DNA of 64,000 nucleotides. It comes from Deltaproteobacteria bacterium TL4 (GTDB lineage: Bacteria > SAR324 > NAC60-12). A program made the position numbers and the translations under genes. Positions 10,083 through 63,700 of the stretch are shown here, in pieces. The stretch spans positions 62,891 through 126,890 of the forward strand of contig JBBCAX010000033.1 of NCBI GenBank assembly GCA_051382335.1. The letters are read 5' to 3'. Below the pieces are notes generated by a model. That model ran no database searches. It was given only the letters and a program-made list of their open reading frames with translations, and was not told where the DNA came from. Each line of letters opens with the position of its first letter. Within the stretch, counting starts at the first letter, position 1.

Positions 10083-10201
10083 CGGTTTTACGGGTTTGAA
10101 AGCTTCTTTGAATCGACATTGAAAACAGTGGTCTCCTAATCGAGTAACGTTTGAAATTAAGTAATAGACGTGTTATCCCTGATAAGCGTAAGGAGGTGGA
10201 T

Positions 10202-10414
10202 ATGTTGGCGATACGATTACCGGATGAAATTGATCAGCGTTTAAGTACTTTAGCAAATAAAACAGGTCGTACAAAAACGTATTGTGCTAAAGAAGCAATT
10301 TTGAAATATTTGGAAGAAATGGAAGAGACTTATATCGCCATTGAAAGATTGGAAACACCAGAAAAGCGATGGACACTCGGAGAATTGGAGCAAGAACGTG
10401 ATTTGGAGTGTTGA
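10202..10414 (+). CDS. Ribbon-helix-helix antitoxin (RelB/CopG/StbD-like)
   Basis: AAGGAGG RBS; MLAIRLPDEIDQRLSTLANKTGRTKT; overlaps the toxin start. Confidence 0.88.
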   Translation: MLAIRLPDEIDQRLSTLANKTGRTKTYCAKEAILKYLEEMEETYIAIERLETPEKRWTLGELEQERDLEC

Positions 10415-10685
10415 ATTTGACGATCGTGCACGTCGAGAACTCCGGAAACTTGATAAACAGGCTCAACAAGAGATTCTAAGTTACCTAAGGGAAAAAATAG
10501 CCACATCAGAAGATGTTAAACGTTTTGGGAAGCCTTTAGTTGCCGATAAACAAGGATTGTGGCGTTACCGCATTAGTGATTATCGGATCATTTGTAGAAT
10601 AGAAAATGAGCAACTTGTTGTTTTGGTTGTCAGGGTAGGACATCGAAAAAATGTTTATGAGAACAAGCTTAATGATTCGATCTAA
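10398..10685 (+). CDS. Type II toxin, RelE/StbE family
   Basis: GTG start; WSVEF..RARRELRKLD, GKPL...GLWRYRISDYRIIC, VRVGHRK. Confidence 0.92.
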   Translation: MIWSVEFDDRARRELRKLDKQAQQEILSYLREKIATSEDVKRFGKPLVADKQGLWRYRISDYRIICRIENEQLVVLVVRVGHRKNVYENKLNDSI

Positions 10686-18362: not shown

Positions 18363-21300
18363 TTAGGAAAGAGTGTGGATGCTGTTTTTTTGTTGGCAAT
18401 GTTCCATAAATTTTTTAAAACAGAGATTGCTTTTTAAAGCTTCTTCGGAGTGTGCGATGTTGTAAAAAAAGACAGAGCTTCCCACGACGACAAGTTTCTT
18501 TTTCGCTCGTGTGATCACCACGTTAAAACGGTTGGGATTGTTAAGAAATTCCCCTTCAATCTGATCCAAATCTGATACGGTAAAGCCAAACAAAATCACG
18601 TCTCGTTCCGCGCCTTGGATCCGCTCAACCGTATCAATCAAAGGTCTCTGGAAATGATGCTCCTCCATCAGGGGTTGAAGTTTTTCAAGGATTGCATTGT
18701 TTTGTGCCCGATGGGGGGTGATGATTGCGATTTGCTCAGGAGATACCTCATATTCCATGATTAAGGTTTTCGTAAACTCTACCAGCAGTTCCATTTCCGG
18801 AACACATTTTTGCCCAGACCCCCTGTGATCCAGTAAAACCAAACTCACCGGTTGAGCCGGGTTTAAAATGGGACCGTAGGGGTCCGTCAGTTGAAATCGG
18901 GATAGTTTCAAACGTGAATTCTGATTAGAGAGGTGAGGATACAAGGCTCCCTCATACCAGGTCTGACTTGGAAACTCACAGAGTTCTTTATTCATCCGAT
19001 AAGTCACATTTAAGCGTGATTGGAGGGGCGCATCATAGTGTTTCATCAAATGGGCCAGGATGGAGTCTTTTAGATACACTTGCTCTTTTTCTGCGTCATA
19101 TCTTCCTATTACAATCGGTGGTAATTGATTCACATCTCCAAGGAACAGAAAATTACCTTTACCGTACAGCAAACTCAATAACGCTTGAGGGACTAGAACC
19201 TGTGAGGCTTCATCAAAAATAACCCAGTCAAACACAGGGGGGAAATCTCCGTCTTTTCCTTCAAATAACTGATAAAGTCCAAAACCTGTTGCTCCCAAAA
19301 TGGCGTAAGGGTGTTCTGCTAATTCGTTGACATCGTTCAGTAGTTGTACGGTTCTGTCACCGAACGGCTGAGGGGAATCTTCACTCCAACGTCCCCATTT
19401 AAAGCAAGGCGCGGGAAATTCCCGCAGCGAATGTTGATTGAGGAGTTGAAGAACCTTTCGCAGAACCTGGTCAATAGCCTGATGAGTAAGAGCACTGACC
19501 ACGATACGCATGGGGCGATTGTTTTGCTGGGCATGCAGAACCAACGCAATTAAAATCCATCCCAAAAGGTGTGTTTTCCCAGTTCCAGGAGGTCCTTCAA
19601 TCAAACTCAAACGATATTGAAAGGCTTGTTTTAAGGCTTGTTGTTGCGTCTCATTGAGTCCTGAAATCTGACTAAATCTCTTCAACCATTGTTCTGCCCA
19701 GGTTAAAGCGTCTTCATCCTGCTTGAAAGACCATCCTCCAGATAATAAATGAAACAAGGGGTGATTGTGATCCTCTGACAAAACGATTTGTACTCCATGA
19801 AATAATTTATTCGTATTCCAATCCGTTAGATCTTCTTCCAGGGAATAACCCGCGTTTTTATTTAAGTTTATTTTTCCTTGACGAGACCGTAAGCAAATCT
19901 GATTTTGACTTCGATCATAATTTTCAAGAATGACGGGTATTCCCTTTTGAAGATCACTCAAGGAAAGAGGCGCGAGTTTGAGAAAATCCCCTTCTCGAAA
20001 CTTGGAACTCCTGTTGGGGCCCTTGATCCTGAAGAGGTACAAAAACCGTCCTTCCTCATCAAGGACCATTTTCTCGAACTCTAATGGTCCGAGAGAACGG
20101 AACCGTTCAACACGTTCTTGAAATGAAAGTTTCTGTAATTGCAAGATATCGTCTTCCCGTAAACGTTTTTCATTCTCAATAAAATTCAGGTAGGCGTCTT
20201 TGAGTCCCCTCGTTGGATCAAGGTTCGGAGAAGAATCCTGCTGATTCCATTCACTGCGCAGATGTGGCGATAACCACTTCCAGACGGCCAACAGCACCTG
20301 GAGGCGTTGTTTCAACGTTACTTCCATTGCCTGACGTGTTTTCTCGTCAGGATCGTTCGCTATTGAGCCATTCGACCATGAGTCTTGATGGAACAGGCTC
20401 TCCGGAGGAAGTTGATTGAGCGAAATTCCTGTAACTCGACTCAAGGCGTACAGGGTCATTTCCCCTGGAATCGGGAAGTCAAAATGGGAAAAAATGAGGT
20501 GTGAAAGAGAGGTACTGTGCTGGCGTTGAGGATTCCACAGGAAAGACAACTCGGAATCCACAAAAATGTTTTGGAACGATAACCAATCGCTTTCTCTAAA
20601 ATAGAAAAGATGAGGGGTCTGTCCCTCAGATCTTCCCTTGTCCCACACCTTGATCAATTGAGGAATAAAGGTTTTTCGAAAGTGAGAAGACTGTTCTTCA
20701 TCGAAAAACAACCAGGTTTGATTCTGGAGAACCGTTCCCGTATTATCGGTCACACACCACCCCAAACCACAACTTTTTCTGGAAAGAGGGTCTTCTAAAG
20801 TCTGAATGAAAAGGCTCAACGACAGATTGGCGGGAAAGAGACGAGTTACCGGTTCCCTCAAATAAAATTGCCCGGTTTGTAACGATTTTGTTTTTGCCAT
20901 CAACCGTTCACGCTGGTTGGGTGACAAGCCATCATCAATGGAGTCAGAGGTTTGTTCCTTTGAAAAATAGGACTCCACTTGCGTCAAGGAATGCAAGTGC
21001 TGAAGTCTGATTTTTTCCAAAATACCTGCGGTGATTCCTGGCAAAAACAGAATCTCTTGCTCCCCTAAGGAGTGATGATAACAATAATCGAACCAAGGAC
21101 ATGACGTACAAGGAACCTCCAAACGATAGGGCGCTTTTTGCGGAAGTTGCAACAGCGTATTCCGAATGTTTTCCCAAAGCGCGGGGAATGAGGCCCAAAA
21201 GGGGGCAAGCTCGAATTCATGGAGGATCGCTTCACTTCCAGACTCTTGGGAAGGGGTCATTAAAAACCCTGTAGAGGAAATTTGCAGGGGTTCGGAAAAG

Positions 21301-24140
21301 ACCCCTCGCGCGTTGAGTTCTCGCATGAGAAAGGAGTAAAACCCTACTTGCCATTTTTGACTGTATTGAGGGGTTTGGCTCCTTTTGATATCCCCAATTT
21401 GCAAAACGGGCAGGTTTTCTTTCATCGTAAGTTGAATCAAATCAGGGATTCCAACTCCGTCCAGCCGTAATGCAGGGTGAACGCTCAACAAGGACGGAAG
21501 TAACATCACCGCATGTGAGAGTATGAACGTTTGAGAGGGTTCCTGCCGGATTTGTTGGATGCAATGTCTTAGGTATTTCAGCGAGGCTTGAAATCGTTCT
21601 TCCAGGGACATCCTCTCTCCTGAGGAGTGATACTCTTCAATGGTGACCATTTGATCGCAATCGCTTTTCAAATGTTCCAAAACGTTTTGCTCAAATTGCT
21701 TCCCCAACTCCATGCGGAGTAACTCCAGCTCATTATCGACCGGTGTTGATCTCGCGGGAGCCTGTTCCGTTGGTAAAAAGCAAAAGGACAACCACCGCTC
21801 ACATTGTTGTTTCCGGAAGTAATCACCAATGAGGGTTCCTGTGATGGAACGGGGACGATAAGCGAAGGTGTCAGGCCACTTAAAAGAACGGTCTTCTTGC
21901 GTTTTCCAGCGTTGCTTTTCCTCCTCCAATAGAAAGGCTGCGGCTGTTTTTTCTTTGAGAGCCACCACGGTTTGATCTTTTTGAGGCTCTTGAATTTTGA
22001 GCCAGCCCAATTCACCCGAAACCCCTTCAGACGAAGCACTGAGGTATTGATCAAAAGTTGTTGCTAATCGAGCGTCATATAGAAAATCAGTAACTTCATC
22101 CAGTAAAACGTCTAACGGTAAAAAAGTAGAAAACGCATTAAGTGGAAATAAAGCGCAGAGTATTTTGAGGTGTGGGGCTGCCCAATTCCGAAACGCTTTT
22201 TTGCTGGTGGGAAGCGGGAGCCCTTGAAAGTTAACAAGATGCGAACATTCTATGCCTGTCTCATCTCCGGCAATGCTAAAGTCTTCCTGTTTTGCCAAGG
22301 GACTTCCCTCAAGGATCCTTTGCAGAATCATATTTCCGATTGCGCCGATAAAGGTGTGATAACGATAAAGTCCGGTGAGACTTCTTCCCAAACGCATTCC
22401 ATTGGCAAGCGGCAGGGTTTGCTTAAATTGTTCCCGCTCAATTTCCAACAAACGACGTGTACGGCTAAAGAGTCCCCATTCACTTTCCTCTCCTTTGGTA
22501 AGGTCTGATTCCAGAAAGTATTGAATGGCTTGCGCGACCTCATAAGATACCCGGGATCCTGCTCCCAACCAGAAAATCTCTTTTGAACCGATTTGAGTCG
22601 CAGGCAAGGCTAGCACTTTATTTTCTTCACCCTCAATAATTTCAATAATTTGAAGGCGTTTTCCCGCCAATTGAACACAATCGTTGACTTCCAATTGCTT
22701 CACAACCGATTTAGGTAAATCCGCAAGGGATTCCTTTTCCATTTCCAGGAGGTATTCTTCTTCGGTTTCAGGAAAGTTACTCCAAATTTTCCGCTCCAGA
22801 TAATAATCACGATAACGCCAACTGCCTTGAAATAAACCACGTACTGTTTTTTCACGGATCCATCCTTGTTTGCTCATGTGCGAAAAAATCAAGGGTAACT
22901 CCGAGTGTTGGTCAGGAAACAGTTGTTGTAAAGATTGCAAGGAGAGTTGTTTTTTTTCATAGAGGCAGGAAAGGCTTTGTTGTATCAAAACACTTGGAAG
23001 TTGTTTCGTTGAGGGGTGTTCAATCCGCCCCTCTCTGGCTAATTTCAATAATCCCAGAAAACGCAAAAGTTGTCGCTCCGGTTGGGGGCCCCTACAAATT
23101 CCCCAGAAATGAACATTGTTTTGGCGGCGATTTGCCCGTCCAATGCGCTGCAGAAAATTCATTACAGATTCAGGTGGTTCATAAAGCAGAACGCCATCAA
23201 CGTTCCCGATATCAATCCCTAATTCCAAGGTACTGGTTGCAATACAGAGCGCGTGTGTTCGTTTTCGAAACCGTTCCTCCACGCCTCTTCGTGCTTGGGA
23301 TTTCAAGTTGGAGTAATGAAGCTCGGTAACGCCCATGAACGAGCCTGATTGATTCAGAATGGCTAATAAACGGTCACAGGTTCCACGATTATTGGCAAAA
23401 ATCAGGATTTTTTGATAGCCCCAGGTTTGATAACAATCCTCCAAAAGCGCAACCAGCTCTCGTTCATCATTTTTGAGAGAGACGATGTGAGGAATGATAT
23501 TTCGTTGGGTCAGAGAACAGCATCGAAAAGTATTTGGTTGGAAGTTAAAAAAACGGATCACTCCCTCGATATCTTCAATCGTTGCGGAAAGTGCGATTTT
23601 TTGCAAAGGACGGTTTATTCGGCATTCCAAACGTCTCAGCAGAAAACTGAGTTGTTTCCCCCGGTAGGTTTCGAAAAAGGTATGAACCTCGTCAATAATA
23701 ACCATCCGGATTTGCTTCGTGTAGGACCGCATATCGGCATTATTGCTGCCAAGAACAACATCCAGCGATTCTGGCGTGGTTAGCAACACATCAGGGTTTC
23801 CGCCGCCAGTCCGCTTTACATCACCGGTGCGAAGTCCGAGAGAAAGCTCCAAACGAGCTAGTGTCGGGGCGAGCCTTCTCTCCAGATCCATTGCCAACGC
23901 ACGGGTCGGAATGAGGTAAAGAATTTTATTTTTCTGTTGGGAACAGATGAGTTGTTCCACACAAGGGGCAAGAACCGCCTCTGTTTTGCCGGAACCTGTC
24001 GCTGCTTGCAAGATCACATCCCGGCCTTCCAACAGGGGGGCAATCACTTCGATTTGAACCGAAGAAAGTTGCGTGAAGGTGCCGTAAAAAGCACGATAAG
24101 TATTGGGGAGCAGGAGCAGAGGAGAGGCAAAATGGCTCAT
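18363..24140 (-). CDS. Multidomain protein: Lhr-like SF2 helicase, Cas4/Dna2-like PD-(D/E)xK nuclease and Upf1/Dna2-like SF1 helicase
   Basis: AATGSGKT, DEVH, SAT, STLELGIDIG, QRIGR; CERW...GIPDL...GDIK...QVGFY...CTSCPWFDYC; GPPGTGKT, DEASQ, GDVNQLPP, TVERIQGAERD, NVVITRAK. Start taken at ATG 24140. Confidence 0.88.
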   Translation of the reverse strand: MSHFASPLLLLPNTYRAFYGTFTQLSSVQIEVIAPLLEGRDVILQAATGSGKTEAVLAPCVEQLICSQQKNKILYLIPTRALAMDLERRLAPTLARLELSLGLRTGDVKRTGGGNPDVLLTTPESLDVVLGSNNADMRSYTKQIRMVIIDEVHTFFETYRGKQLSFLLRRLECRINRPLQKIALSATIEDIEGVIRFFNFQPNTFRCCSLTQRNIIPHIVSLKNDERELVALLEDCYQTWGYQKILIFANNRGTCDRLLAILNQSGSFMGVTELHYSNLKSQARRGVEERFRKRTHALCIATSTLELGIDIGNVDGVLLYEPPESVMNFLQRIGRANRRQNNVHFWGICRGPQPERQLLRFLGLLKLAREGRIEHPSTKQLPSVLIQQSLSCLYEKKQLSLQSLQQLFPDQHSELPLIFSHMSKQGWIREKTVRGLFQGSWRYRDYYLERKIWSNFPETEEEYLLEMEKESLADLPKSVVKQLEVNDCVQLAGKRLQIIEIIEGEENKVLALPATQIGSKEIFWLGAGSRVSYEVAQAIQYFLESDLTKGEESEWGLFSRTRRLLEIEREQFKQTLPLANGMRLGRSLTGLYRYHTFIGAIGNMILQRILEGSPLAKQEDFSIAGDETGIECSHLVNFQGLPLPTSKKAFRNWAAPHLKILCALFPLNAFSTFLPLDVLLDEVTDFLYDARLATTFDQYLSASSEGVSGELGWLKIQEPQKDQTVVALKEKTAAAFLLEEEKQRWKTQEDRSFKWPDTFAYRPRSITGTLIGDYFRKQQCERWLSFCFLPTEQAPARSTPVDNELELLRMELGKQFEQNVLEHLKSDCDQMVTIEEYHSSGERMSLEERFQASLKYLRHCIQQIRQEPSQTFILSHAVMLLPSLLSVHPALRLDGVGIPDLIQLTMKENLPVLQIGDIKRSQTPQYSQKWQVGFYSFLMRELNARGVFSEPLQISSTGFLMTPSQESGSEAILHEFELAPFWASFPALWENIRNTLLQLPQKAPYRLEVPCTSCPWFDYCYHHSLGEQEILFLPGITAGILEKIRLQHLHSLTQVESYFSKEQTSDSIDDGLSPNQRERLMAKTKSLQTGQFYLREPVTRLFPANLSLSLFIQTLEDPLSRKSCGLGWCVTDNTGTVLQNQTWLFFDEEQSSHFRKTFIPQLIKVWDKGRSEGQTPHLFYFRESDWLSFQNIFVDSELSFLWNPQRQHSTSLSHLIFSHFDFPIPGEMTLYALSRVTGISLNQLPPESLFHQDSWSNGSIANDPDEKTRQAMEVTLKQRLQVLLAVWKWLSPHLRSEWNQQDSSPNLDPTRGLKDAYLNFIENEKRLREDDILQLQKLSFQERVERFRSLGPLEFEKMVLDEEGRFLYLFRIKGPNRSSKFREGDFLKLAPLSLSDLQKGIPVILENYDRSQNQICLRSRQGKINLNKNAGYSLEEDLTDWNTNKLFHGVQIVLSEDHNHPLFHLLSGGWSFKQDEDALTWAEQWLKRFSQISGLNETQQQALKQAFQYRLSLIEGPPGTGKTHLLGWILIALVLHAQQNNRPMRIVVSALTHQAIDQVLRKVLQLLNQHSLREFPAPCFKWGRWSEDSPQPFGDRTVQLLNDVNELAEHPYAILGATGFGLYQLFEGKDGDFPPVFDWVIFDEASQVLVPQALLSLLYGKGNFLFLGDVNQLPPIVIGRYDAEKEQVYLKDSILAHLMKHYDAPLQSRLNVTYRMNKELCEFPSQTWYEGALYPHLSNQNSRLKLSRFQLTDPYGPILNPAQPVSLVLLDHRGSGQKCVPEMELLVEFTKTLIMEYEVSPEQIAIITPHRAQNNAILEKLQPLMEEHHFQRPLIDTVERIQGAERDVILFGFTVSDLDQIEGEFLNNPNRFNVVITRAKKKLVVVGSSVFFYNIAHSEEALKSNLCFKKFMEHCQQKNSIHTLS

Positions 24141-24521
24141 TAAAATTCGTCTGTAAATAATAACACAACAAGTCGACAGAAATTGGTTGAAGCAAATAGA
24201 GGGGTGGCCCGACTTCACCAACTTTTATTCCAGCACCCTTTAAAGTCAAGGTATAAGCGTGGCACAAGAGGTCAATCACTCTCTTCGGATCAAAAACTGG
24301 TCATTACGTGATCGCTTATATTGTGGACTGCTGACACCATTTTTTCGACTCATTGGAAACAAATTTTTCACACCCTTTTCCTTTCCTGAAAAAAAAAAAC
24401 TAAAAAAGTGTCAGAAAATTCTTTTTTTTACTTCCTTTTCTGAAAATTTTGAGATAAATGGCTTTATATGAGATGAGATTTTTAACTTAGGGGAGTTATT
24501 TACTTTATTTAAAAAATAGGA

Positions 24522-27500
24522 ATGGTCATTATGGAAAGATTTTTCGTAAAAATCGTACTAATTCTACTCAGTTTGCTAATCCCTCTTTGGTTTGTTGCTT
24601 GTGAGGGCAAAAAGAATGACTCGACAGATCCCAAAAATGCTGCTGAGGCGACTGGTGTCATTACTGGGATTATCAAAGATACCTCGACGAATAAACCCCT
24701 GAAAGGTGTCGTGATCTCTGCGGTGGCTGGAGAGGCTACTTTTACCGCGGAATCTGCCATCGATGGTAGCTTTATTCTGGAAATAAAACCGGTTCAAAGG
24801 ACGGATGGTTATGATGTTCAGTTTTCCAAAGAGGGGTATGAAGCGGCTACAAAATCTGCGGTTTTCGATCTGCCAAATTTGCGGGTGGAGTTGGGAACGG
24901 TACTCTTGACTCCGGTCAGCACTGAGAAGACTCCCTCTGGCAAAATTATTGGTCTTGTCAAGGATTCAGCTACCATTAAAGGTATAGCTGGAGTCAAAGT
25001 CTCCGTAGATGTTAAAGGGACCATCGTCACTACCGATACTGACTTAACGGGTGCCTTCACACTAGAGGTGAAGGGAGCACAGGCAGGAGAAGGTTATAGT
25101 GTGCAATTCTCAAAAGATGGATATCAGAATGCGACAAGAGCCGCCAGCTTTGATCAAAAATTGGAAGTGGATTTGGACGTTGTTTCTCTAACCCCGTCCA
25201 CAACAAGTGTCACTTCAGGGGGTACCACTTCAGGGGGTACCACTTCAGGAGGGACTACTTCAGGAGGGACTACTTCAGGGGGGACTACTTCAGGGGGGAC
25301 TACTTCAGGAGGGACTACTTCAGGAGGGACCACTTCAGGGGGGACTACTTCAGGAGGGACTACTTCAGGAGGAGACGCTTCGGAAGATGTCATCGAACCC
25401 ACAATCAAGACAGGTGTGATCCAGGGGACAATTAAGGATAACTCGGGTAGTCCACTGAAAGAGGTACAAATATTTTTAAGTATTGGAACTTCCACACTTA
25501 ATATGAAATCGGGAGTCGATGGTACTTTTTCCATGAGTGTTGAAGGCGTTCAAGAAAATGAAAATTACAAAATTGCCTTTAGTAAAGAAGGCTATGAAAA
25601 AAATTCACAGGTGATCAGTTTTGATACCTCCGATTTGAAAGTCGACATGGCAACGGTTTCCTTGACTAACGAGGATATCACACCTGTAGAAACGCACGCA
25701 GGTCAACTGACCGGGATTGTTAAAGATGTTGTTTCTGGAAATCCCCTGGAAGGGGCAAAAATATATGTATTTGTCAATGATCTCTATTACGCTGCGTCGG
25801 GAGTTGATGGCGCGTTCGCACTGGAATTAAATGGAATCCAGGATGCCGCGGCTTCTGCGATTCTGATTAAAAAAACAGGATATCAAGACTTCAGTAATAC
25901 GATCCTTTTTGCCTCACCCACTTATAATTTGGAAATGGGAGTTGTTTCCTTATCTCCAGTTCAGGTGGTAGCCGAAAAGAAAATTGTGGGTACGGTCATT
26001 GACAGTTTTTCCGCTTCCGGTTTGGCCAATGTCTTGGTAACCGTTCAAGATTCAAAGTCAGCAACCAAGACGGCTCTTACCAACGAGAATGGGGAATTCA
26101 GTATTTCTGGAAAAGATTTTTATCTGGAGAGTTCTTATACACTGAGTCTGACCAAAACCAATTATGTCGAACGTTCTGATGTCAGCGTAACGATCAGCGG
26201 GGATACAAACCTCATTGATAAAAGTATTGTTCGACTTTATAAGCAAGCTGGAAAAATTAGTGGCGATATCAAGGATGAGGCTACAGGTACTCCTCTAAAA
26301 GATACGGTTGTAACCGCTACGGACAGCCTGGGCGCTGAAGTCTCGGCAACGACAGACGCACAGGGGCACTTCACACTGGCAAGCGATTACTTCCTTTTGG
26401 GAGAAACTTATCAGGTTGTTGTTTCCGGAGGTTCTGATTTTCACCCTACGCAAACCAGTGTTAAGATTTCTACAACGTCGGATCAATCGCCGAATCTCAT
26501 TAGTGAGGTTACGCTTTTGAAACCTGTCAGTGTATCCGGAATCGTCAAAGACACTAACGGAAATCCCATTTCTAATCTTAAGGTAACTGTTGAGGGACTT
26601 CCGGATGAGGTCATCACGGATGGTGAGGGCAAGTTCACGCTTTCTGGGACAAGCTATCTGAGAAACACGGCCTATAAACTGACATTTACGAAAGAAGGTT
26701 ATACTTCTGAAACAGTAACCTCCTCACTCCTTGGTACTGGGGTAAACATCATGGGTGATATCCAACTTGCGGCTGAAGTCACAACGCCTCCCGTGGAACA
26801 ACCCTCTTCTGGCTGGAGGAGCCTTTCCGGAAAAGTCGTTGATTACTGGAAAGATGCGATAGGTTTGAGTCCGACCGCGCTTCAGGATGCCACTGTGAAA
26901 GTGACAGACGATGGCACTGCCATCCGTTCTGATCTAACCGATGCGAATGGAAGTTTTGAAATCAGTGGAAATTTTACTGTCGCAAAAAATTATACGCTGA
27001 CTATTAGCAAAAGTGGTTTTACCGGAACTCAGGAAATGGAGCTAAAATCGGAGGTAACAATGGGCAACGCTCCTTATACATCAGGAACATTCGCCCTCTA
27101 TCCTCTTGGTGTGTTTACTAAACTCAAACGATCCACGGATAGTAGTTCAACTGAACTCAATTTGAATCAACAGTTGAAACAGACTTATGAAAAATTTCTC
27201 ACCGGCAAAACAGGTTTTACCTTATCGGCCCGGGATGATAACGATCTGAATAAGGCCAACACCTTCTATATCCATCTGGATGACAGTTCTTTTCCCTCTT
27301 CATTACCCAGTGGTTTGGGCAAGCATTCCAATTACCTGGCAGTGGGCGGAGCCCAGAAAAAAGGTGCCTTGACGGAAGGCCTCGGCAGTGACTCCCGAAT
27401 TACAAATACTCAATGGGAAGGAACTACCACAAACTGGGGTTTGAAGAATTTTGTATTGTATCACTTTTATGCGGCTCAGGCTGGGACTTATACCATTGAA

Positions 27501-27995
27501 ACTACCAGTTCCACCGATACTGTTCTGATTCTCTATGATGCCTCAGGTACTAAAAAGATTGAAGATGACAATAGCGGTACCGACAAAAACGCAAAAATAA
27601 CCTATACGGTGCAATCTTCTGACTCAGGTAGTTGGTATTTTGTCCAGGTTAAAGGCGCGAATGACAGTACTTTTGGTCTTTTCGAGATCCAGGTATCAGG
27701 ACCTGAACTTTCAGCTCAGATAACCACTTTGCCGCAAACGTGGGATACCACTACTGCCGATAAAGGAATTGTCCTTTCCTGGTATGATCAGGCTTATCAT
27801 AAGCTTTATATTGCCGCTCCTGATGAAAGCGTTTCTTCCGGTTCTATTACGATCAGCCATTTTGGTGCTATTGGAAAAATTGTCCGAGGGCAATTCCCCA
27901 AAGAGGGTTCTGATGGCGTCATGCGAGCGGTAGACGACAGTGGGGCAACCGTTGAGATTCAAAAAGGTTATTTCAACATTCTAAGAAGCGAGTAG
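24522..27995 (+). CDS. Large lipoprotein with tandem carboxypeptidase-regulatory-like beta-sandwich domains and a C-terminal PPC-like domain
   Basis: Lipobox FVA-C; about 8 repeats of GxVxD...PLxGxxV...TDxxGxF...FSKx[16 protein letters not shown]...DDNSG. Confidence 0.8.
25212..25373 (+). repeat. In-frame 15-bp tandem repeat encoding (TSGGT)x11
   Basis: ACTTCAGG(A/G)GG(G/T)AC(C/T) recurs every 15 bp from 25212 to 25362. Confidence 0.97.
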
Positions 27996-27999
27996 AGAC

Positions 28000-28671
28000 A
28001 TGAAACATAAAACATTCCCGAAGATAGTTCCTGTTTTCTTGATGGTGTTCATGATTGGTGGCATATTATTCTCATTAAGCGCTGATCCAGGCCAGTTAGG
28101 AACAGGACAACTAAAATTCAAAATTGGTGAAAAAGATTATTTATTCCTGAACGCACAGGGAACTGTTGAGACAAAAGCGGGTCAAAAGGTTATTACCGTC
28201 GGTCTGAAGGATGCTCAACAGAAAACAAAATTATACATTACGGCTTTCCTTGCGGATGAAGCTTTGGAAAACCATCTCAGCACCCAGTATCATGAAATCT
28301 CCTTGATGTTCAAGGATCCTGATGCTTCTATTTTTGTGATGCCCGCTGTGCGTCTGGCAAGACAAACCAGTTTCCTCTATGCACAAAAAGTAGGAACAGG
28401 CAGAAACATACGCTATGTAAGAACAGCTCCTGATTGGGCGAATATGTCTAGAAAAGAGCGGCTTGACACGGGTAAAGGGGTGATTCGTCGCAAGCAAATG
28501 GAAGATACCGCTTTCTTTCTGAATTTATATCCAACCTTGAAAAATGGACAACTCGTGGAACTAAAGGGGGTATTTTCCGGAGTGGTAAAACAGAAAAACA
28601 GTACCACCCAGGCAATGCAAAACACCACAATCAATGATGGCGAATTCCGCGTTATTGTTCAGCAGTATTAA
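28000..28671 (+). CDS. Hypothetical exported protein
   Basis: Signal peptide (SLSA-D); starts 4 bp after the upstream gene. Confidence 0.7.
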   Translation: MKHKTFPKIVPVFLMVFMIGGILFSLSADPGQLGTGQLKFKIGEKDYLFLNAQGTVETKAGQKVITVGLKDAQQKTKLYITAFLADEALENHLSTQYHEISLMFKDPDASIFVMPAVRLARQTSFLYAQKVGTGRNIRYVRTAPDWANMSRKERLDTGKGVIRRKQMEDTAFFLNLYPTLKNGQLVELKGVFSGVVKQKNSTTQAMQNTTINDGEFRVIVQQY

Positions 28672-28718
28672 GTTTACTTTGTTGAGGTTTTTGACCCTAT
28701 TTTTAAGAAGGTGTAAAA

Positions 28719-30206
28719 ATGAAAAAATGGAACTATAGACGCATAATAATTTTCGGTTTTTTTATGATGATTCCTTTCAGTATTTATTCCTATACTGACA
28801 ACACTCATCAGAATTTTTCGGAAGACGCTCTCATTTTTATGGAAACAGAGGGTTCCAATCAGATGCGTTGGGTGGCTGATTATTACAAGGCCAAAGCGGG
28901 TGGGCGCTATACAGGGGTCTGTGAGAACAAATCGGATGAGACGAATCCTCTCGAATCTGCCAATGCCGGTCCGGAATGCGGAGCCATTGGTATTGCTCGG
29001 GTGGGTGGCGTAAAGCCTGATTATTTCCGTGATGTGTTCTGGGATGATTTTACGATCTTTCATTGGAACATTCCCAATCCTTTTTATAGAAACAATTTCA
29101 CCTCCTGGTCCCATTTTATTAATCTCTTGCAAAAAGCGGATGAGGGACATGATATCGTTACCAACAACTATAACGATTATGATGGTTATTCTTATAATAA
29201 CTCTTTTGGTTTTCCTTCAATGGGACTCGATTATGCTGTTGCTTCTGGAATGAATAACGCATGGATGACCATTGATCTGCCCCATTGTACCCATAGCAGA
29301 TGTGCCGAGAGATATTCGATTGTCCCCAATCCCAATCCTGCGGTAGACTATAAGCAAAACCGTGCGACAACGTCTTTGGGGACACCTCAAACTGAGAAGA
29401 AATCAGGGGGTGGCAATGGCACGAATTATAATTGTTTTAGCGATTCATCTCTAGGGAATTGTCCTGATTCCGGTTATAGCAAAACCTGTAAATCTGCCAA
29501 CTGCGGATGGTTTAGCTGTAGTGGGCCAAAGAGTGGGGGGCCTTTCCAAATTCCAGGTGACAACATTCATTGTGGAAAAGGCAAGAGTTGCAGTGACAGT
29601 GATGGAGAGTGTGGTCCGGGACAAGGTAACCCCTCTGTGAGTGACGAGGACTGGGTCATCTATGAGCCGGCTGACAATGCGGGAACCTTCTTTTATAATG
29701 AGTTTTTTCTGGAAGGAGGTACCAGTCGAAACACCCAGTTGGATATTGCTGCCGTTGCGGGACGGTATTATTCAATCCAGGGAAATGAGCTGATTCATGT
29801 GTTTGCGCCTTTACACTGGGCAGCGGATTCCGGAGTACAGCCTCACATCTGGGCCACGCTTGGCTATAACCATTCAGAGACGGAAACATGGATTGATGAA
29901 CAGTATGGCAAACGGAAAGTGGGAGGGAACGATGTGAGTAAAAACTACGAAAATTACGACCATGTGAAAGCTTATCTTGCCTCACGACAGAATCACTACG
30001 AAGGTATTGAGCTGGATGATCTTTTTATGGAACAGGCCTTTCTGACTTATCACCTCCGATTGCGAAATGGCCATGATACCCAAAGTAACTCTGACGATGC
30101 CTCCAACAGAAACTATTATATCTGGGCCGTCCCTAATGTCATCACGACGGAAGCTCTGATTATTGAAAAGGGTGTGATGGATTTGAGAAAATATAAGGGT
30201 AACTAA
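28719..30206 (+). CDS. Secreted protein, probable Zn-dependent phospholipase C / P1-nuclease fold with Cys-rich insert
   Basis: Signal peptide then YTDNTH; KPDYFRD, WSHF and LHWAADSGVQPH...NHSETE follow the Zn-ligand order of this fold. Confidence 0.6.
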   Translation: MKKWNYRRIIIFGFFMMIPFSIYSYTDNTHQNFSEDALIFMETEGSNQMRWVADYYKAKAGGRYTGVCENKSDETNPLESANAGPECGAIGIARVGGVKPDYFRDVFWDDFTIFHWNIPNPFYRNNFTSWSHFINLLQKADEGHDIVTNNYNDYDGYSYNNSFGFPSMGLDYAVASGMNNAWMTIDLPHCTHSRCAERYSIVPNPNPAVDYKQNRATTSLGTPQTEKKSGGGNGTNYNCFSDSSLGNCPDSGYSKTCKSANCGWFSCSGPKSGGPFQIPGDNIHCGKGKSCSDSDGECGPGQGNPSVSDEDWVIYEPADNAGTFFYNEFFLEGGTSRNTQLDIAAVAGRYYSIQGNELIHVFAPLHWAADSGVQPHIWATLGYNHSETETWIDEQYGKRKVGGNDVSKNYENYDHVKAYLASRQNHYEGIELDDLFMEQAFLTYHLRLRNGHDTQSNSDDASNRNYYIWAVPNVITTEALIIEKGVMDLRKYKGN

Positions 30207-30217
30207 ATAAGATCTAT

Positions 30218-30287
30218 GGGTTCAGAGTTCAACGCTAAGATCGGTGAGCTCTGAATCTTGAACCCCTGAACCCTTAACCTCTGAACC
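30218..30287. repeat. Short-unit (7-8 nt) TGAAC repeat tract with inverted partner
   Basis: GGGTTCAGAGTTCAA ... TCTGAAT CTTGAAC CCCTGAAC CCTTAAC CTCTGAACC. Confidence 0.65.
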
Positions 30288-30294
30288 ATCACTC

Positions 30295-31608
30295 ATGACC
30301 GCCCAATTCAAAAAAGTGCGGGTCGTCTCCGGACTCGCCCTGATGACCTTATTGCTCCTCATCGCCCTCTTTTTTTTTCTCAAGTTATCCGAACCAGAAC
30401 CCGTTTTGACCTTTCGAGGCGGAAGCATTTCTCAGAATACTTACCATTTTCTTCATCAAACCGAGTATGCCCATCTGAATGATGATGAATTAATTCAAAA
30501 ATTAAAGGATCGAGAAGTTCAGGGAGCTTTGGCGACCAAACAAGGTTTGAAGGATAACAAAATGTATCACTGGGCTTTAAATTTAAGAAGAAGAAGCCGA
30601 TTGAGCCGGGGGGCTCATTTAATTTGGAGAAACTTGGATCCCGCCCATTCAGATGAAAATTTTGAGTATGATCAGATTTGGAAGGACTTGAAATTCGAGA
30701 TAAATCTGGATCACCTCTCTGAGCAAATTACTCAGTATGTGGACAAAAATGAAATTAATCCCCGTTTGAAAATCGATCCTGAGGACTTGATCGCAGGGCG
30801 TTGGAGTGAGGGGGAAATTACCTTGGCTATGTTGAAAAAGGAGATGTTGAGTGAAGAATGGGAACGGATGCTGACTTTTGCGCCTGTTCCTCGCAAACAG
30901 GAATTGAGCGCTGCACTGAAAACCGTGACTGATTTTTTTCTCTACAGTAAAGCGATCAAGCGGTTCCGGGCGGTTGAAGAAGAGCTGATTCGTCAGGATC
31001 ACAATCACGTCGCTGCCATTTATCTCCCTGCCCGTTATGGTCAATCGGCGGGTGCTTTTCCGGTGGACCCCATTCAGATTGAGTTTAAGTCCACAGAATT
31101 ATTTGATCATTTTTTCAAAATCAAAGAGAGCTTAAAAAGAATTAATTGGGTCAAATGTCGTTATGTCGTGGTTAACGATTCAACAACCGCCGAACTTGTT
31201 TATGAACGGCTGAGAAATGGGGATCCCTTTTTATCACTGGCCGAAATCTATGCCATCAATAAAGATTATCTTCAGACGGCTGGTGAAATAAATCAGATCT
31301 ACCGGGTTGATCCCAAATATGGTTTGGAGCGGGATCATCTTCGTCCCTATATTGAACGTGTGATACTCTACATGGCAAAGGAAGAAATACGGTTGCCAAA
31401 GCCGCTTCCCCTGGATAAAGGTTACCTTGTCGCGGATCTTTTGAAGATAGAAAAAGAGAATGAGGAACTCCAATTTAAAGACTTTCGGATCATGGTCAAA
31501 CTGGATCTTCAGAAAGAATTATTGGCACGTCAGTTTCCCATTGATTTGCAGGATATGCGACAGGAACTCAATTTTCAGCAATTTGAAATAAAACCGATAC
31601 CTCAATAA
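30295..31608 (+). CDS. Membrane-anchored PpiC/SurA-PrsA-like foldase
   Basis: N-terminal TM; VKCRYVVVNDSTTAELVYERLRNGDPFLSLAEIY resembles the start of a parvulin domain. Confidence 0.6.
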   Translation: MTAQFKKVRVVSGLALMTLLLLIALFFFLKLSEPEPVLTFRGGSISQNTYHFLHQTEYAHLNDDELIQKLKDREVQGALATKQGLKDNKMYHWALNLRRRSRLSRGAHLIWRNLDPAHSDENFEYDQIWKDLKFEINLDHLSEQITQYVDKNEINPRLKIDPEDLIAGRWSEGEITLAMLKKEMLSEEWERMLTFAPVPRKQELSAALKTVTDFFLYSKAIKRFRAVEEELIRQDHNHVAAIYLPARYGQSAGAFPVDPIQIEFKSTELFDHFFKIKESLKRINWVKCRYVVVNDSTTAELVYERLRNGDPFLSLAEIYAINKDYLQTAGEINQIYRVDPKYGLERDHLRPYIERVILYMAKEEIRLPKPLPLDKGYLVADLLKIEKENEELQFKDFRIMVKLDLQKELLARQFPIDLQDMRQELNFQQFEIKPIPQ

Positions 31609-60731: not shown

Positions 60732-63700
60732 TTTAAAATTCGCAGTATTAGTGACCCTCCATTCCCTTTGAATTCAATCTTTTGATCCTCACACACAAAT
60801 TTAGTTCCAAACTGTGCGGGATACTTGACATACGAACCGGTATGCGTCCCCTCCTTGGGACAATCCTCGGTCTTCAGAACTTTGAAATCCAGACAAGCGA
60901 TATTTGACGCATTTTGTTCATCATAGACGGTTAAAGATATTTTTATTGTTAAGTCATTATGCTTTTCAGAAATTTCAGGAGTTTGAAAAGAGGCATTTTG
61001 AGAAGTAGGGTTCTGGACTGTCACCAGCGCGAAGCCATTGATCTCCCACACATAATCTTTAATCAGACTATTGTCACTATACGAACTGGACCCATCTAAC
61101 ATCACCAAACTGTCTTCATTCACCTGCACTAAATTGGTTTGTTCAACACAATTGATGTCCGTTCCATACTCATGGGGCTGATCTTTCGACCCTATAATGG
61201 CTTTAGGCGGTGTATGATCCTCCTCATTATCTTCATTTATAATTCCACTCTCACCGTTTAAAATTTCACTCTTATTGTTGTAGTATTTAGAATCCTCTGA
61301 AGTAGAACTTGCCGTAACCAGAACTCTAACATTGGGATCAAATTCATCATCTTCCAAACCGGTTACGACTTGTTTCTGAGTAGCATTCCAGTTATCAGGA
61401 CTGAAAACCATAGCATATTCCAATAATTCGATCTCATCTTGAGTCTTTTTATCAACTTTAAACTCAATTTTAACATCACCGGCGGGACGACTTAATAATT
61501 TCACATCAAGAACCAATTCCCCATCACTTTGATCTTCAGTTACAATCCAATCCTTATAATCAGGAATCTTCTGCAAATCCTTGTATTTTTTGGGAACAAC
61601 TGGTTTCTTTTCTGTTTCCACCTTGTTTTTTTCCATATAAAACCCATGTTTATCATAGCCATAATCTTCATAATTGAATCCCTTCAAATTAACAGGGTTT
61701 TCCGGTACATCTCTTGTGCTAAACAAACCCTTTCCTTCATCAATCCATACATTGCTGATTTTTCCACCTTCCAGACTGAGGTTTGTCTGATCCGACGCAC
61801 TGTTTTTGATTATCAAAGTAACGGCTGTCTCATTATCCGTCGAATTTACTTCCACATTTTTCAAGGTTAACGTCGCTTTACCACTGAAGTTATAGGAGGG
61901 ATCTGGTGCCATTAATAACTTTGCTGTAGCTGAAGTTGTTTCAGCATCTCCCCCCAGAATCTTTCCAGCCGTCATCTCAATACCAGCCTCAAGCCTCAAG
62001 GTTGCGTTCTTGAAAACTATTTCATCATTATTTTTAGCCATCACCAGGGATTGATTAATACTTAGGAGGGTACCGTCTTTTAGTGTGAGTGTGTGCTCTT
62101 TCAAATTTAAATGACCGATCCTTAATTCTGTACTGCTTATGGACACAGTTCCACGCAACTCTACTATTGAGGCCTGATCGGCTGTCAAATTTTCAATCGT
62201 AAGCGAGGCGCCAAAACCAACATCATTTCCTAAATAAAGCGTGCTTTCTGCTGCCAAAGTAATCGCGCCTCCCGTCAAATCCGCTTTTTTACCCAGAGCC
62301 AGTTTCCCCTCTTCTGAAACTGAAATCGCTCCGCCGGTCATAGTCAAATTTGTGACAAAATCTAAAACACCGCTATTAACCTCAATGGAATCAGTCGATT
62401 GAAGTGCAACAGATCCTGTTAAAATCAGGTTTGATTGTGTCTCAGTACTTTTTAAAGTGAGTTTCTTTCCATTTAATAATAAATTTCTAAAGTCCAATGG
62501 CTGAGCAATTGTCATGGTCACATCCTTACAATCAGCCTCAGAACTTTGTGGATACCTGCAAATATTGAGATCGGTGGAATAATTGGTTTTAATAGAAACC
62601 ACACTTGCTACAGTAAAATCACCTCCAAGCCGCACTTCTGTATTTTGCAGATTCAAATTACCCGCAGTTAAATTCCCCCCTCCGTTAAACGCAAGAACAC
62701 CACCAGTACTTTGAATCACAGTACTGTCAGAATCCATGATGAATTCTTTTGCAAAAGTCAGATCGGCTCCATTGGTGTAAATCCTGCCACTTTTTAAATT
62801 GATAACGGGTTCAGAGGCTCCAGCAATCACTAAATCCGTTTCTTTTGAGGCCAAGGTTAAAGTAAATGAATTCAGATTCAAAGTACCAATAGTTGTCCCT
62901 TCATTGAGTTCTAATAAAATGTTGCCGTTTAAGGTCAAATGAGTTCCTTCGTTAGTTATCAGTTTTCCTACTTGAAAAGGCTTTCCCAACTCCAGGTTAA
63001 TATCGTTAGCAATTAATTGAGTCTGTTGTTCTGTGTTTAGCAGCTTGATCTCGCCATTCGCTACCACGTTTTTCTCAGGATCTAACGTGCCTGCGCCCTT
63101 CAAAGTTAAGGTTGCGTTCTTAGGAACAGATAAAGTATCATTGATCATCAGAGTACAGTTTCCCTTGATGTCCAACACGGTGTTCCTTTCTATCTCAAAT
63201 TTATTCAATGTGAACTTTGTTGCCTCCACAGAGATAAGACCATTTTCCAAGTCCGCATCTGTGGTTACCACGACTTTATTTACTGTTCCACCATTGCCAT
63301 TCAATACTAACTTACTTTTCGGATTTTCCAGAAAAACGTTTCCCTTCAAAGTACCCCCTCCCAGAAGCTCCAAGCGCGCGTTGCTGATACCAATGTCATT
63401 TTCTACCGCCAATTCTGTAGCCTGATCGATATTCACTCTTGCCATATCTTCGAATACCAAAGTAGTGATCCGAGAATTGGCCTTAACGCCCATCTCCCCT
63501 ATCAACGCATTGTCGCTTTTTCCAAAAGCGATTCGAGTCACTTCTACGTTTTCAAGAAAAAGCTGACTATCGGAGGTTCCCAAGGACAGAAAAACATCAT
63601 TTTTGAAAACACTGGAGTCTCGTGTTGCGCCCCTTATTGTTAATTGACGGCCAATATCCAGAAAAGCGTTATTTGTCTCCTTATAGGTGAGCGTCACATT

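Follow-up and report, generated by a model that had tools for sequence, protein, structure and literature searches.

What can one gene that joins two helicases to a nuclease be for, and does its product work alone? The question arises from a 1,925-residue open reading frame (ORF) of Deltaproteobacteria bacterium TL4 (SAR324; assembly GCA_051382335.1), which lies in a stretch of 64,000 nucleotides (positions 62,891 to 126,890 of contig JBBCAX010000033.1), here called the window. The frame encodes an Lhr/BrxHI-like superfamily 2 (SF2) helicase fused to a Dna2-like nuclease-helicase. We conclude that it belongs to a cassette that is an undescribed variant of the BrxD-BrxHI and SngB-SngC kind with a built-in two-motor nuclease. 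We think it probable, if by no means assured, that the fusion protein is the predicted effector of this ATPase-loaded four-gene cassette, which would degrade foreign or abnormal DNA as an antiphage or antiplasmid defense, its partners acting in trans in this genome.

The gene is one open frame on the minus strand, from an ATG at 24140 to a stop at 18363, with no internal stop. An in-frame TTG at 24221 falls within a decayed upstream gene and is an unlikely start. The motifs of two helicases and of a PD-(D/E)xK nuclease with 1+3 cysteines, reported in an earlier note made from the letters of the window, were each found where it had placed them (Table 1). A full-length protein search returned 331 proteins, the best 120 of which (the query and 119 relatives) were taken. 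These relatives are 1,710 to 2,174 residues long, align over nearly their full length at 39 to 58% identity, and come from many independent assemblies, some with contigs of 3 to 6 Mb, under the source names SAR324, Desulfobacter, Desulfobacula, Electrothrix, Gemmatimonadetes, and Latescibacteria. In the family alignment, C780, C1014, and C1020 are present in 120/120 sequences, C1011 and D900 in 119/120, and K919 in 117/120; both Walker A lysines, both DE pairs, D900, D/E917, K919, and the four cysteines are jointly retained in 114 of the 120. Because near-full-length relatives exist and the catalytic and cysteine positions are kept together, the alignment indicates that the fusion is real and under selection. 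The GC content of the gene (45%; contig, 41%; genome, 43%) shows no clear anomaly and no tRNA was found in the 64 kb, so there is no sign of recent insertion. Promoter and terminator scans stayed at the level of shuffled sequence (7 vs 9.5 and 11 vs 8.4, respectively).

Pfam places DEAD and Helicase_C domains at the N terminus and AAA_11/AAA_12 at the C terminus, and residues 740 to 1490 match PDDEXK_1 over the family cutoff (E 7e-5). Structure models agree with these assignments and with the domain calls of the earlier note. The model of the N-terminal half (residues 1 to 760, 40 sequences, mean predicted local distance difference test score [pLDDT] 83) has mycobacterial Lhr (5v9x) as its best PDB fold match, with a template-modeling (TM) score of 0.64. 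That note had also linked the gene to BREX (bacteriophage exclusion) type 2 and Shango, a link borne out by the PADLOC profiles: BrxHI matches residues 22 to 695 at E 2e-80 and SngC gives a match at E 1e-69. Our names for the winged-helix, barrel, and alpha/beta domains follow the description of BrxHI in the accessible text of PMC12839542. The linker between the halves falls below pLDDT 50 at residues 718 to 738 and 744 to 760, the latter stretch being the cut end of the model, and is 20% identical to that of the orthologue in genome G007 vs 60% for the Lhr part.

The C-terminal half (residues 740 to 1925; pLDDT, 87; predicted TM score, 0.83) matches Dna2 (5ean) best, at E 6e-34 over 1,225 columns, followed by Ighmbp2 and Upf1. 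The TM score to Dna2 is 0.41 to 0.46 and the whole-chain root mean square deviation is 25 Å; the domain packing therefore differs or is mismodeled. The nuclease residues are E817, D900, D917, K919, and a QxxxY motif at 931 to 935, and the cysteines C780, C1011, C1014, and C1020 would bind a 4Fe-4S cluster as in Dna2 and AddB (available portion of PMC4716839). Behind the nuclease lies a domain absent from the domain list of the earlier note: the model shows the strand order beta-beta-beta-alpha-beta in residues 1031 to 1330, which is RNase H-like, and the Atlas feature matches are all to RNase_H_2, though at 0.79 to 0.88 (below 0.9) they serve as a lead only. The element near residue 1031 we take to be a helix-hairpin-helix (HhH), a label that follows the architecture of the TM0106 family. 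The acidic pair of the first RNase H strand is replaced by Q1113 and L1115, column 1113 being H in 98/120 sequences; the stand-alone relative P0156 carries D-x-E at this position. The domain is thus apparently inactive and, since the pair is replaced across the family, probably serves in binding.

A profile of residues 760 to 1340 searched against 1.84 billion representatives gave 1,052 matches. Among the best 150 of these, the fused family is followed by stand-alone nuclease-helicases of 1,200 to 1,300 residues with the same cysteines. The C-terminal half is likely a captured TM0106-type, Dna2-like gene, because its nearest unfused relatives are such proteins, one of which passes the TM0106 model. 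Some matches are shorter: P0186, P0222, and similar proteins of about 750 to 800 residues have the same Fe-S nuclease and middle domain with no SF1 helicase match, and they gave no NCBIfam or PADLOC match at the thresholds used. In four fusion genes elsewhere (L105, L106, L107, and L108) the nuclease site is substituted (PG or PS for PD, or loss of DxK) beside two intact motors, and some lineages may for this reason keep a machine that does not cut.

Table 1. Features of the fusion gene and of the DNA directly upstream (positions within the window)
Feature	Positions	Strand	Basis or remark
Fusion gene, Lhr/BrxHI-like SF2 helicase plus Dna2-like nuclease-helicase, 1,925 residues	18363..24140	minus	ORF, Pfam, PADLOC, relatives
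Residues 1-710: Lhr-core-like module (two RecA domains, winged helix, small barrel, C-terminal alpha/beta domain)	22011..24140	minus	PADLOC BrxHI, model
Residues 711-759: low-confidence, poorly conserved linker joining the halves	21864..22010	minus	pLDDT, identity
Residues 760-1030: PD-(D/E)xK nuclease with predicted 4Fe-4S staple	21051..21863	minus	motifs, alignment, PDDEXK_1
Residues 1031-1330: HhH-like element and RNase H-like (RNase_H_2-type) domain	20151..21050	minus	model, alignment
Residues 1331-1490: helical stalk and beta barrel, Upf1/Dna2 type	19671..20150	minus	model secondary structure; fold matches to Dna2, Ighmbp2, Upf1
Residues 1491-1925: SF1B helicase (AAA_11/AAA_12)	18366..19670	minus	Pfam, motifs, fold matches
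SF2 motifs GSGKT (Walker A); DEVH; QRIGRA (motif VI)	23982-23996; 23682-23693; 23133-23150	minus	sequence
Nuclease motifs CERW; PDLI; GDIK; QKWQVGFY	21792-21803; 21435-21446; 21384-21395; 21336-21359	minus	
Cysteine motif CTSCPWFDYC	21081-21110	minus	sequence
SF1 motifs GPPGTGKT (Walker A); DEASQ	19572-19595; 19200-19214	minus	sequence
Decayed fragment of the first cassette gene (280-residue protein), frameshifted, internally deleted	24157..24345	minus	ends about 17 bases before the fusion ATG

The earlier note had allowed for a stand-alone antiphage gene, which the fusion is not: it stands fourth in a conserved cassette, and its three partners lie on another contig of TL4, C293. When the ORFs in 32 stretches around family members were clustered, a fixed order emerged, namely, a 280-residue protein, a 434-residue ATPase, a 415-residue ATPase, and the fusion, usually with overlaps or gaps of a few bases. 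Genomes were counted by hand, and 29 with upstream DNA entered the count, one duplicate locus and one locus without upstream DNA being left out. At least one ATPase stands upstream in cis in 22/29 and all three partners in 20/29 (one set in pieces). Both ATPases match PF10923 and the PADLOC profiles BrxD and SngB with intact Walker A and B motifs; those of TL4 match BrxD at E 4e-44 and 4e-24, and the SngB match is at E 2e-35. Against the NCBIfam BrxD model (NF033438), the ATPase pair of G007 scores 150.6 and 72.2, below the cutoff of 350. The 280-residue protein has no Pfam, NCBIfam, PADLOC (E 1e-6), or PDB sequence match, no Pfam family is common to more than 2 of 35 members at E 0.5, and its Atlas neighbors are unnamed clusters. 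In the 32 stretches these three are the only partner genes conserved around the fusion, and the cassette lacks a methyltransferase, a PglZ, and a TerB protein. Five cassettes or similar loci (L012, L015, L092, L104, and L114) hold inserts, which outside L015 are toxin-antitoxin or small ATPase genes. In the closely related genomes G044, G042, and G720 (L010, L011, and L115) the ATPases give way to a PIF1-like helicase gene immediately before the fusion, which adds a third motor to the operon. One copy (L091:7596-16545, G009:C38), behind a type I restriction locus, is interrupted near residue 345 by a 3-kb insert with genes for a SEC-C and a PIN protein and part of a group II intron maturase.

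In TL4 the cassette is split. The earlier note had seen no partner genes beside the fusion, which holds for intact genes in the window but misses the decayed fragment of the first gene (Table 1). That fragment is 74% identical to the copy on C293 over 144 nucleotides (local score, 89); 26 other orthologues and 200 shuffles score at most 30. The three intact partners occupy G000:C293:16464-19842 on the minus strand, with a HigB toxin pair and unrelated genes coming next, and no fusion remnant was found downstream of the triplet (score 28 vs a shuffle maximum of 32). The simplest history is that of two cassette copies with reciprocal loss. As a rough estimate, selection would have kept the fusion after its neighbor began to decay, because as little neutral drift as a few percent would break a 5.8-kb frame. 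Since the three partner genes survive on the other contig, the machine is likely to function even when split, with partners that would act in trans; six of the seven genomes without cis partners carry at least one partner gene elsewhere. The tetranucleotide distances of C33 (the contig of the window) and C293 from the genome mean rank 89 and 100 of 138, which does not suggest contamination and does not prove a shared chromosome.

The cassette is accessory, rare, and patchy. The fusion is present in 5/88 genomes of its own phylum, in 7/401 sampled from the phylum of Desulfamplus, and in 14/301 from the Desulfamplus order. The earlier note had allowed that the homologs might be core genes; these counts speak otherwise, and a core repair gene was rejected as a candidate. 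The 280-residue gene tends to co-occur with the fusion: it occurs in 4/88 genomes of the home phylum, all four with the fusion, and in 15/301 (plus one distant match), 13 of these shared with the 14 that have the fusion (Fisher p 7e-20, with kin that are not independent). A replacement for RecBCD or AddAB was ruled out, as RecB-like genes occur in 5/5 carriers tested (over the cutoff in three).

An unfused form also exists. A single-sequence scan of the genome contigs gave no match, and an alignment scan, dominated by distant helicases, left 80 loci; in these at least six stretches (one from G720) carry a 280-residue-like gene, two ATPases, and a helicase of 620 to 750 residues. In a tree of 103 helicase domains the fusion forms one clade (33 rows; Shimodaira-Hasegawa-like approximate likelihood ratio, 100) and shares a branch with unfused cassettes that have two ATPases; the helicases of BREX and Shango form another branch. 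The tree was made by a quick method with midpoint rooting and hand-set labels; L044 and L054 are wrongly labeled Shango (PglZ-like or no match), the BREX label of L059 is unchecked, and five rows labeled as two-ATPase cassettes have no detected 280-residue gene. The cassette forms a lineage sister to BrxD-BrxHI and SngB-SngC and belongs to neither BREX nor Shango. Unfused cassettes occur on two plasmids: Desulfomonile pDESTI.01, beside AbiEi/AbiEii and an integrase, and plasmid 3 of Aulosira, directly behind BrxC, PglX, PglZ, BrxD, and a BrxHI-like gene. The cyanobacterial plasmid (AP018310.1 4762-24287; L153/L154) is conjugative, and its BREX locus and unfused four-gene cassette stand in tandem. 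Two unfused cassettes are flanked by RecD2-like proteins (L017:12065-15835 and L018:1607-5317), that of L017 matching the PADLOC candidate PDC-S68 with 1,611 bits; such a protein may represent the second motor in unfused form.

How, then, might the cassette act? The 280-residue protein and the two ORC/Cdc6-type ATPases would recognize a DNA structure or a phage signal and load the Lhr-like motor. With no methyltransferase in the cassette, discrimination of self from nonself by methylation is unlikely. The Lhr-like motor would run 3'-5' and open the duplex, and the displaced 5' strand would thread the Fe-S-stapled nuclease tunnel in the manner of Dna2, with the SF1B domain holding or pulling it. 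Cutting would destroy the DNA of the invader or, as in Hachiman, that of the host. We infer the motor polarities, the Fe-S binding, the loading, and the target, and the opposite polarity of the two motors would follow from their families. In RecBCD/AddAB, as in resection by a RecQ-type helicase with Dna2, motors of opposite polarity feed a nuclease; a RecQ-type motor and Dna2 in one chain is the best working analogy, more so than RecBCD.

Several observations weigh against such a defense machine working from split parts. The enrichment of defense genes in the flanks is weak: toxin-antitoxin, restriction, or PADLOC-candidate genes were found at 10/18 cassette loci and 4/18 controls (Fisher two-sided p 0.086), so that the defense-island enrichment that the earlier note had named as a check appears in direction but falls short of significance. 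These counts cover the DNA inside or within 4 kb of 18 cassettes (about 106 kb) and 131 kb of control DNA from the same genomes, three of which contributed two controls each; categories were assigned by hand, and the scan threshold was E 1e-8 for controls and 1e-4 or 1e-5 for flanks, all ten positives passing 1e-8. Most positives are toxin-antitoxin pairs, a restriction enzyme adjoins just 1/18, housekeeping genes are common, and the flanks in the window are ordinary regulators and secreted proteins; we read the flanks more as a variable locus than as a defense island. No fused copy was found on the 72,556 plasmids searched. The best structural matches, Lhr and Dna2, are repair enzymes. The fusion was found without a partner in G600 and G758 and the 280-residue gene without the fusion in G471 and G630, all fragmented genomes. 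Unrelated genes stand on both sides in only two of the separated cases, TL4 and G552 (in G552 the split falls between the two ATPases); insertions across contig breaks could account for the rest. Two active, opposed motors are not to be assumed either, because in Dna2 the helicase is a weak one that comes after the nuclease (accessible part of PMC4716839); the second motor may grip more than it pulls.

Some of these points would suit an accessory repair or fork-processing machine, unrelated to phage, that carries out ATPase-loaded resection or acts on stalled forks and cross-links. The structural matches, the many housekeeping flanks, the nonsignificant enrichment, and a gene order common to G007 and G016, relatives of TL4, fit such a role. 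However, the cassette occurs in about 2 to 6% of the genomes searched and its carriers retain RecB, the other known settings of its ATPase-helicase pair are BREX and Shango, and unfused forms sit on plasmids, one of them adjoining BREX; we regard a repair machine as unlikely, though far from negligible. It is quite improbable that the substrate is RNA or an RNA:DNA hybrid (R-loops or phage transcripts) rather than duplex DNA. The second motor does resemble Upf1, Ighmbp2, and Sen1, an RNase H-like fold is embedded in the chain, and mycobacterial Lhr favors RNA:DNA hybrids (available text of PMC8301817), but the nuclease is of the DNA-cutting Dna2/AddB/Cas4 type, Dna2 acts on DNA with the same Upf1-like motor (accessible sections of PMC4716839), and the RNase H-like domain lacks the first-strand acidic pair.

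Could the fusion instead act alone in TL4, or could it and the C293 triplet be uncoupled relics of two decaying cassettes? Each locus has lost its complement, no partner stands in cis, G600 and G758 show none at all, and decay of the cassette does occur, because the G009 copy is broken by its 3-kb insertion. All four genes of TL4 are nevertheless intact and full length, fusion and partners co-occur in 13/14 and 4/5 carrier genomes, and cis partners are found in 22/29, which leaves this explanation slim prospects. That the fusion is a chimera of assembly, the outcome that the earlier note had said would undo its reading, can hardly be credited: the genome is indeed a 445-contig assembly, but the 119 near-full-length relatives in independent assemblies, and the single clade in the tree, led us to reject a chimera for the family. 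We thus return to the defense cassette. The fuller proposal, that it provides methylation-independent immunity in which two ORC/Cdc6-like ATPases and an adaptor load a one-chain, two-motor Fe-S nuclease with opposite polarities, functional after its genes are scattered and overlooked by locus-based finders, is tentative and, taken whole, doubtful.

The neighborhood of the fusion in the window contains a ParE/RelE-type toxin behind an 87-residue putative antitoxin (10151-10685) and a 1,157-residue putative lipoprotein (24522-27995) that carries carboxypeptidase-regulatory-like repeats and, near 25212-25313, tandem copies of the peptide SGGTT, after which come three genes without a Pfam match (28000-31608).

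The cassette matters chiefly for what it may reveal about its relatives. The mechanism of the ATPase-helicase pair common to BREX type 2/6 and Shango is not established, and the cassette is a minimal version of that pair, with no methyltransferase and with the nuclease built in; DNA cutting would therefore be a direct readout of what the pair does. One chain in which SF2 and SF1B motors surround an Fe-S nuclease would, in addition, make a simple model for resection by two motors. That the copy in TL4 is split yet intact suggests that such systems can persist in trans and escape tools that rely on adjacency. Our literature search found no description of the fusion or the cassette; subscription journals lay mostly outside it, and the supplement of PMC12839542 may list such loci.

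Among characterized modules, BrxD-BrxHI and SngB-SngC stand closest to the cassette. In BREX type 2 (Pgl) and type 6, likewise, an ORC/Cdc6-type ATPase gene directly precedes an Lhr/Ski2-like helicase gene. The likeness, a BrxHI-like helicase adjoining a BrxD-like ATPase, is one of homology only, as the fusion lies on a separate branch. In contrast to BREX, the cassette has two ATPases, both under the BrxD cutoff, a helicase fused to a Dna2-like module, and no PglX, BrxC (PglY), PglZ, or PglW. According to the available portion of PMC12839542, loading of the helicase by BrxD is proposed only. A separate contig of TL4 carries a BREX type 6 locus that includes a BrxD of its own (G000:C43:1915-14944, L133; BrxC, PglX-6, PglZ-6, and BrxD all over NCBIfam cutoffs), the BrxHI-like helicase of which has 304 residues only and is apparently truncated. 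Shango (SngA, TerB-like; SngB, ATPase; SngC, helicase) resembles the cassette in its compact adaptor-ATPase-helicase order without a methyltransferase. It differs in its first gene, for the 280-residue protein has no SngA/TerB match whereas SngA was detected in three other loci (a positive control), and the cassette adds a second ATPase, a built-in nuclease, and a second motor. BrxD-BrxHI and SngB-SngC belong to defense systems, as stated in the accessible parts of PMC12839542, PMC12278908, and bioRxiv 2022.11.11.516204; the last describes the protection by Shango as modest.

For the C-terminal half, Dna2 (PDB 5EAN), like AddB and Cas4, offers a PD-(D/E)xK nuclease with 1+3 cysteines, followed in Dna2 by stalk, barrel, and SF1B helicase; unlike Dna2, the fusion has an inserted HhH/RNase H-like domain and an SF2 motor. 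Threading of single-stranded DNA and 5'-3' translocation would be as in Dna2 (available text of PMC4716839). The nearest unfused relatives of this half are RecB-like nucleases of the TM0106 family (TIGR03491) with AAA_11/AAA_12, whose nuclease motifs and four cysteines align with ours; they are stand-alone proteins without an Lhr half. Among them, P0156 scores 107 against the TIGR03491 cutoff of 97.45 and 243 bits with the family profile, and TIGR03491 gave no match to residues 740 to 1925 of the window protein at E 1e-5. For the N-terminal half, the mycobacterial Lhr core (5V9X) is the best sequence match (E 2e-32), at 21% identity; the fusion is closer to BrxHI/SngC and lacks the glycosylase-like C-terminal region of mycobacterial Lhr, a 3'-5' translocase (accessible part of PMC5758891). 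Assignment as an Lhr equivalog was rejected on scores under the cutoffs (PRK13767, 150/849; PRK09751, 96/1496; TIGR04121, 183/850), as were the single-gene defense helicases, where only motor cores match (ProA, 56/1500; PLuB, 143/999; Hhe, 43/2000), and MkoA (Mokosh) and DpdJ (Dpd), whose PADLOC matches are limited to the SF1 or SF2 core. With RecBCD and AddAB, finally, the fusion shares the concept of opposite-polarity motors feeding a nuclease; beyond generic motifs it has no homology to RecB, RecC, RecD, or AddA, and it differs from them in being a single chain with dedicated AAA+ partners.

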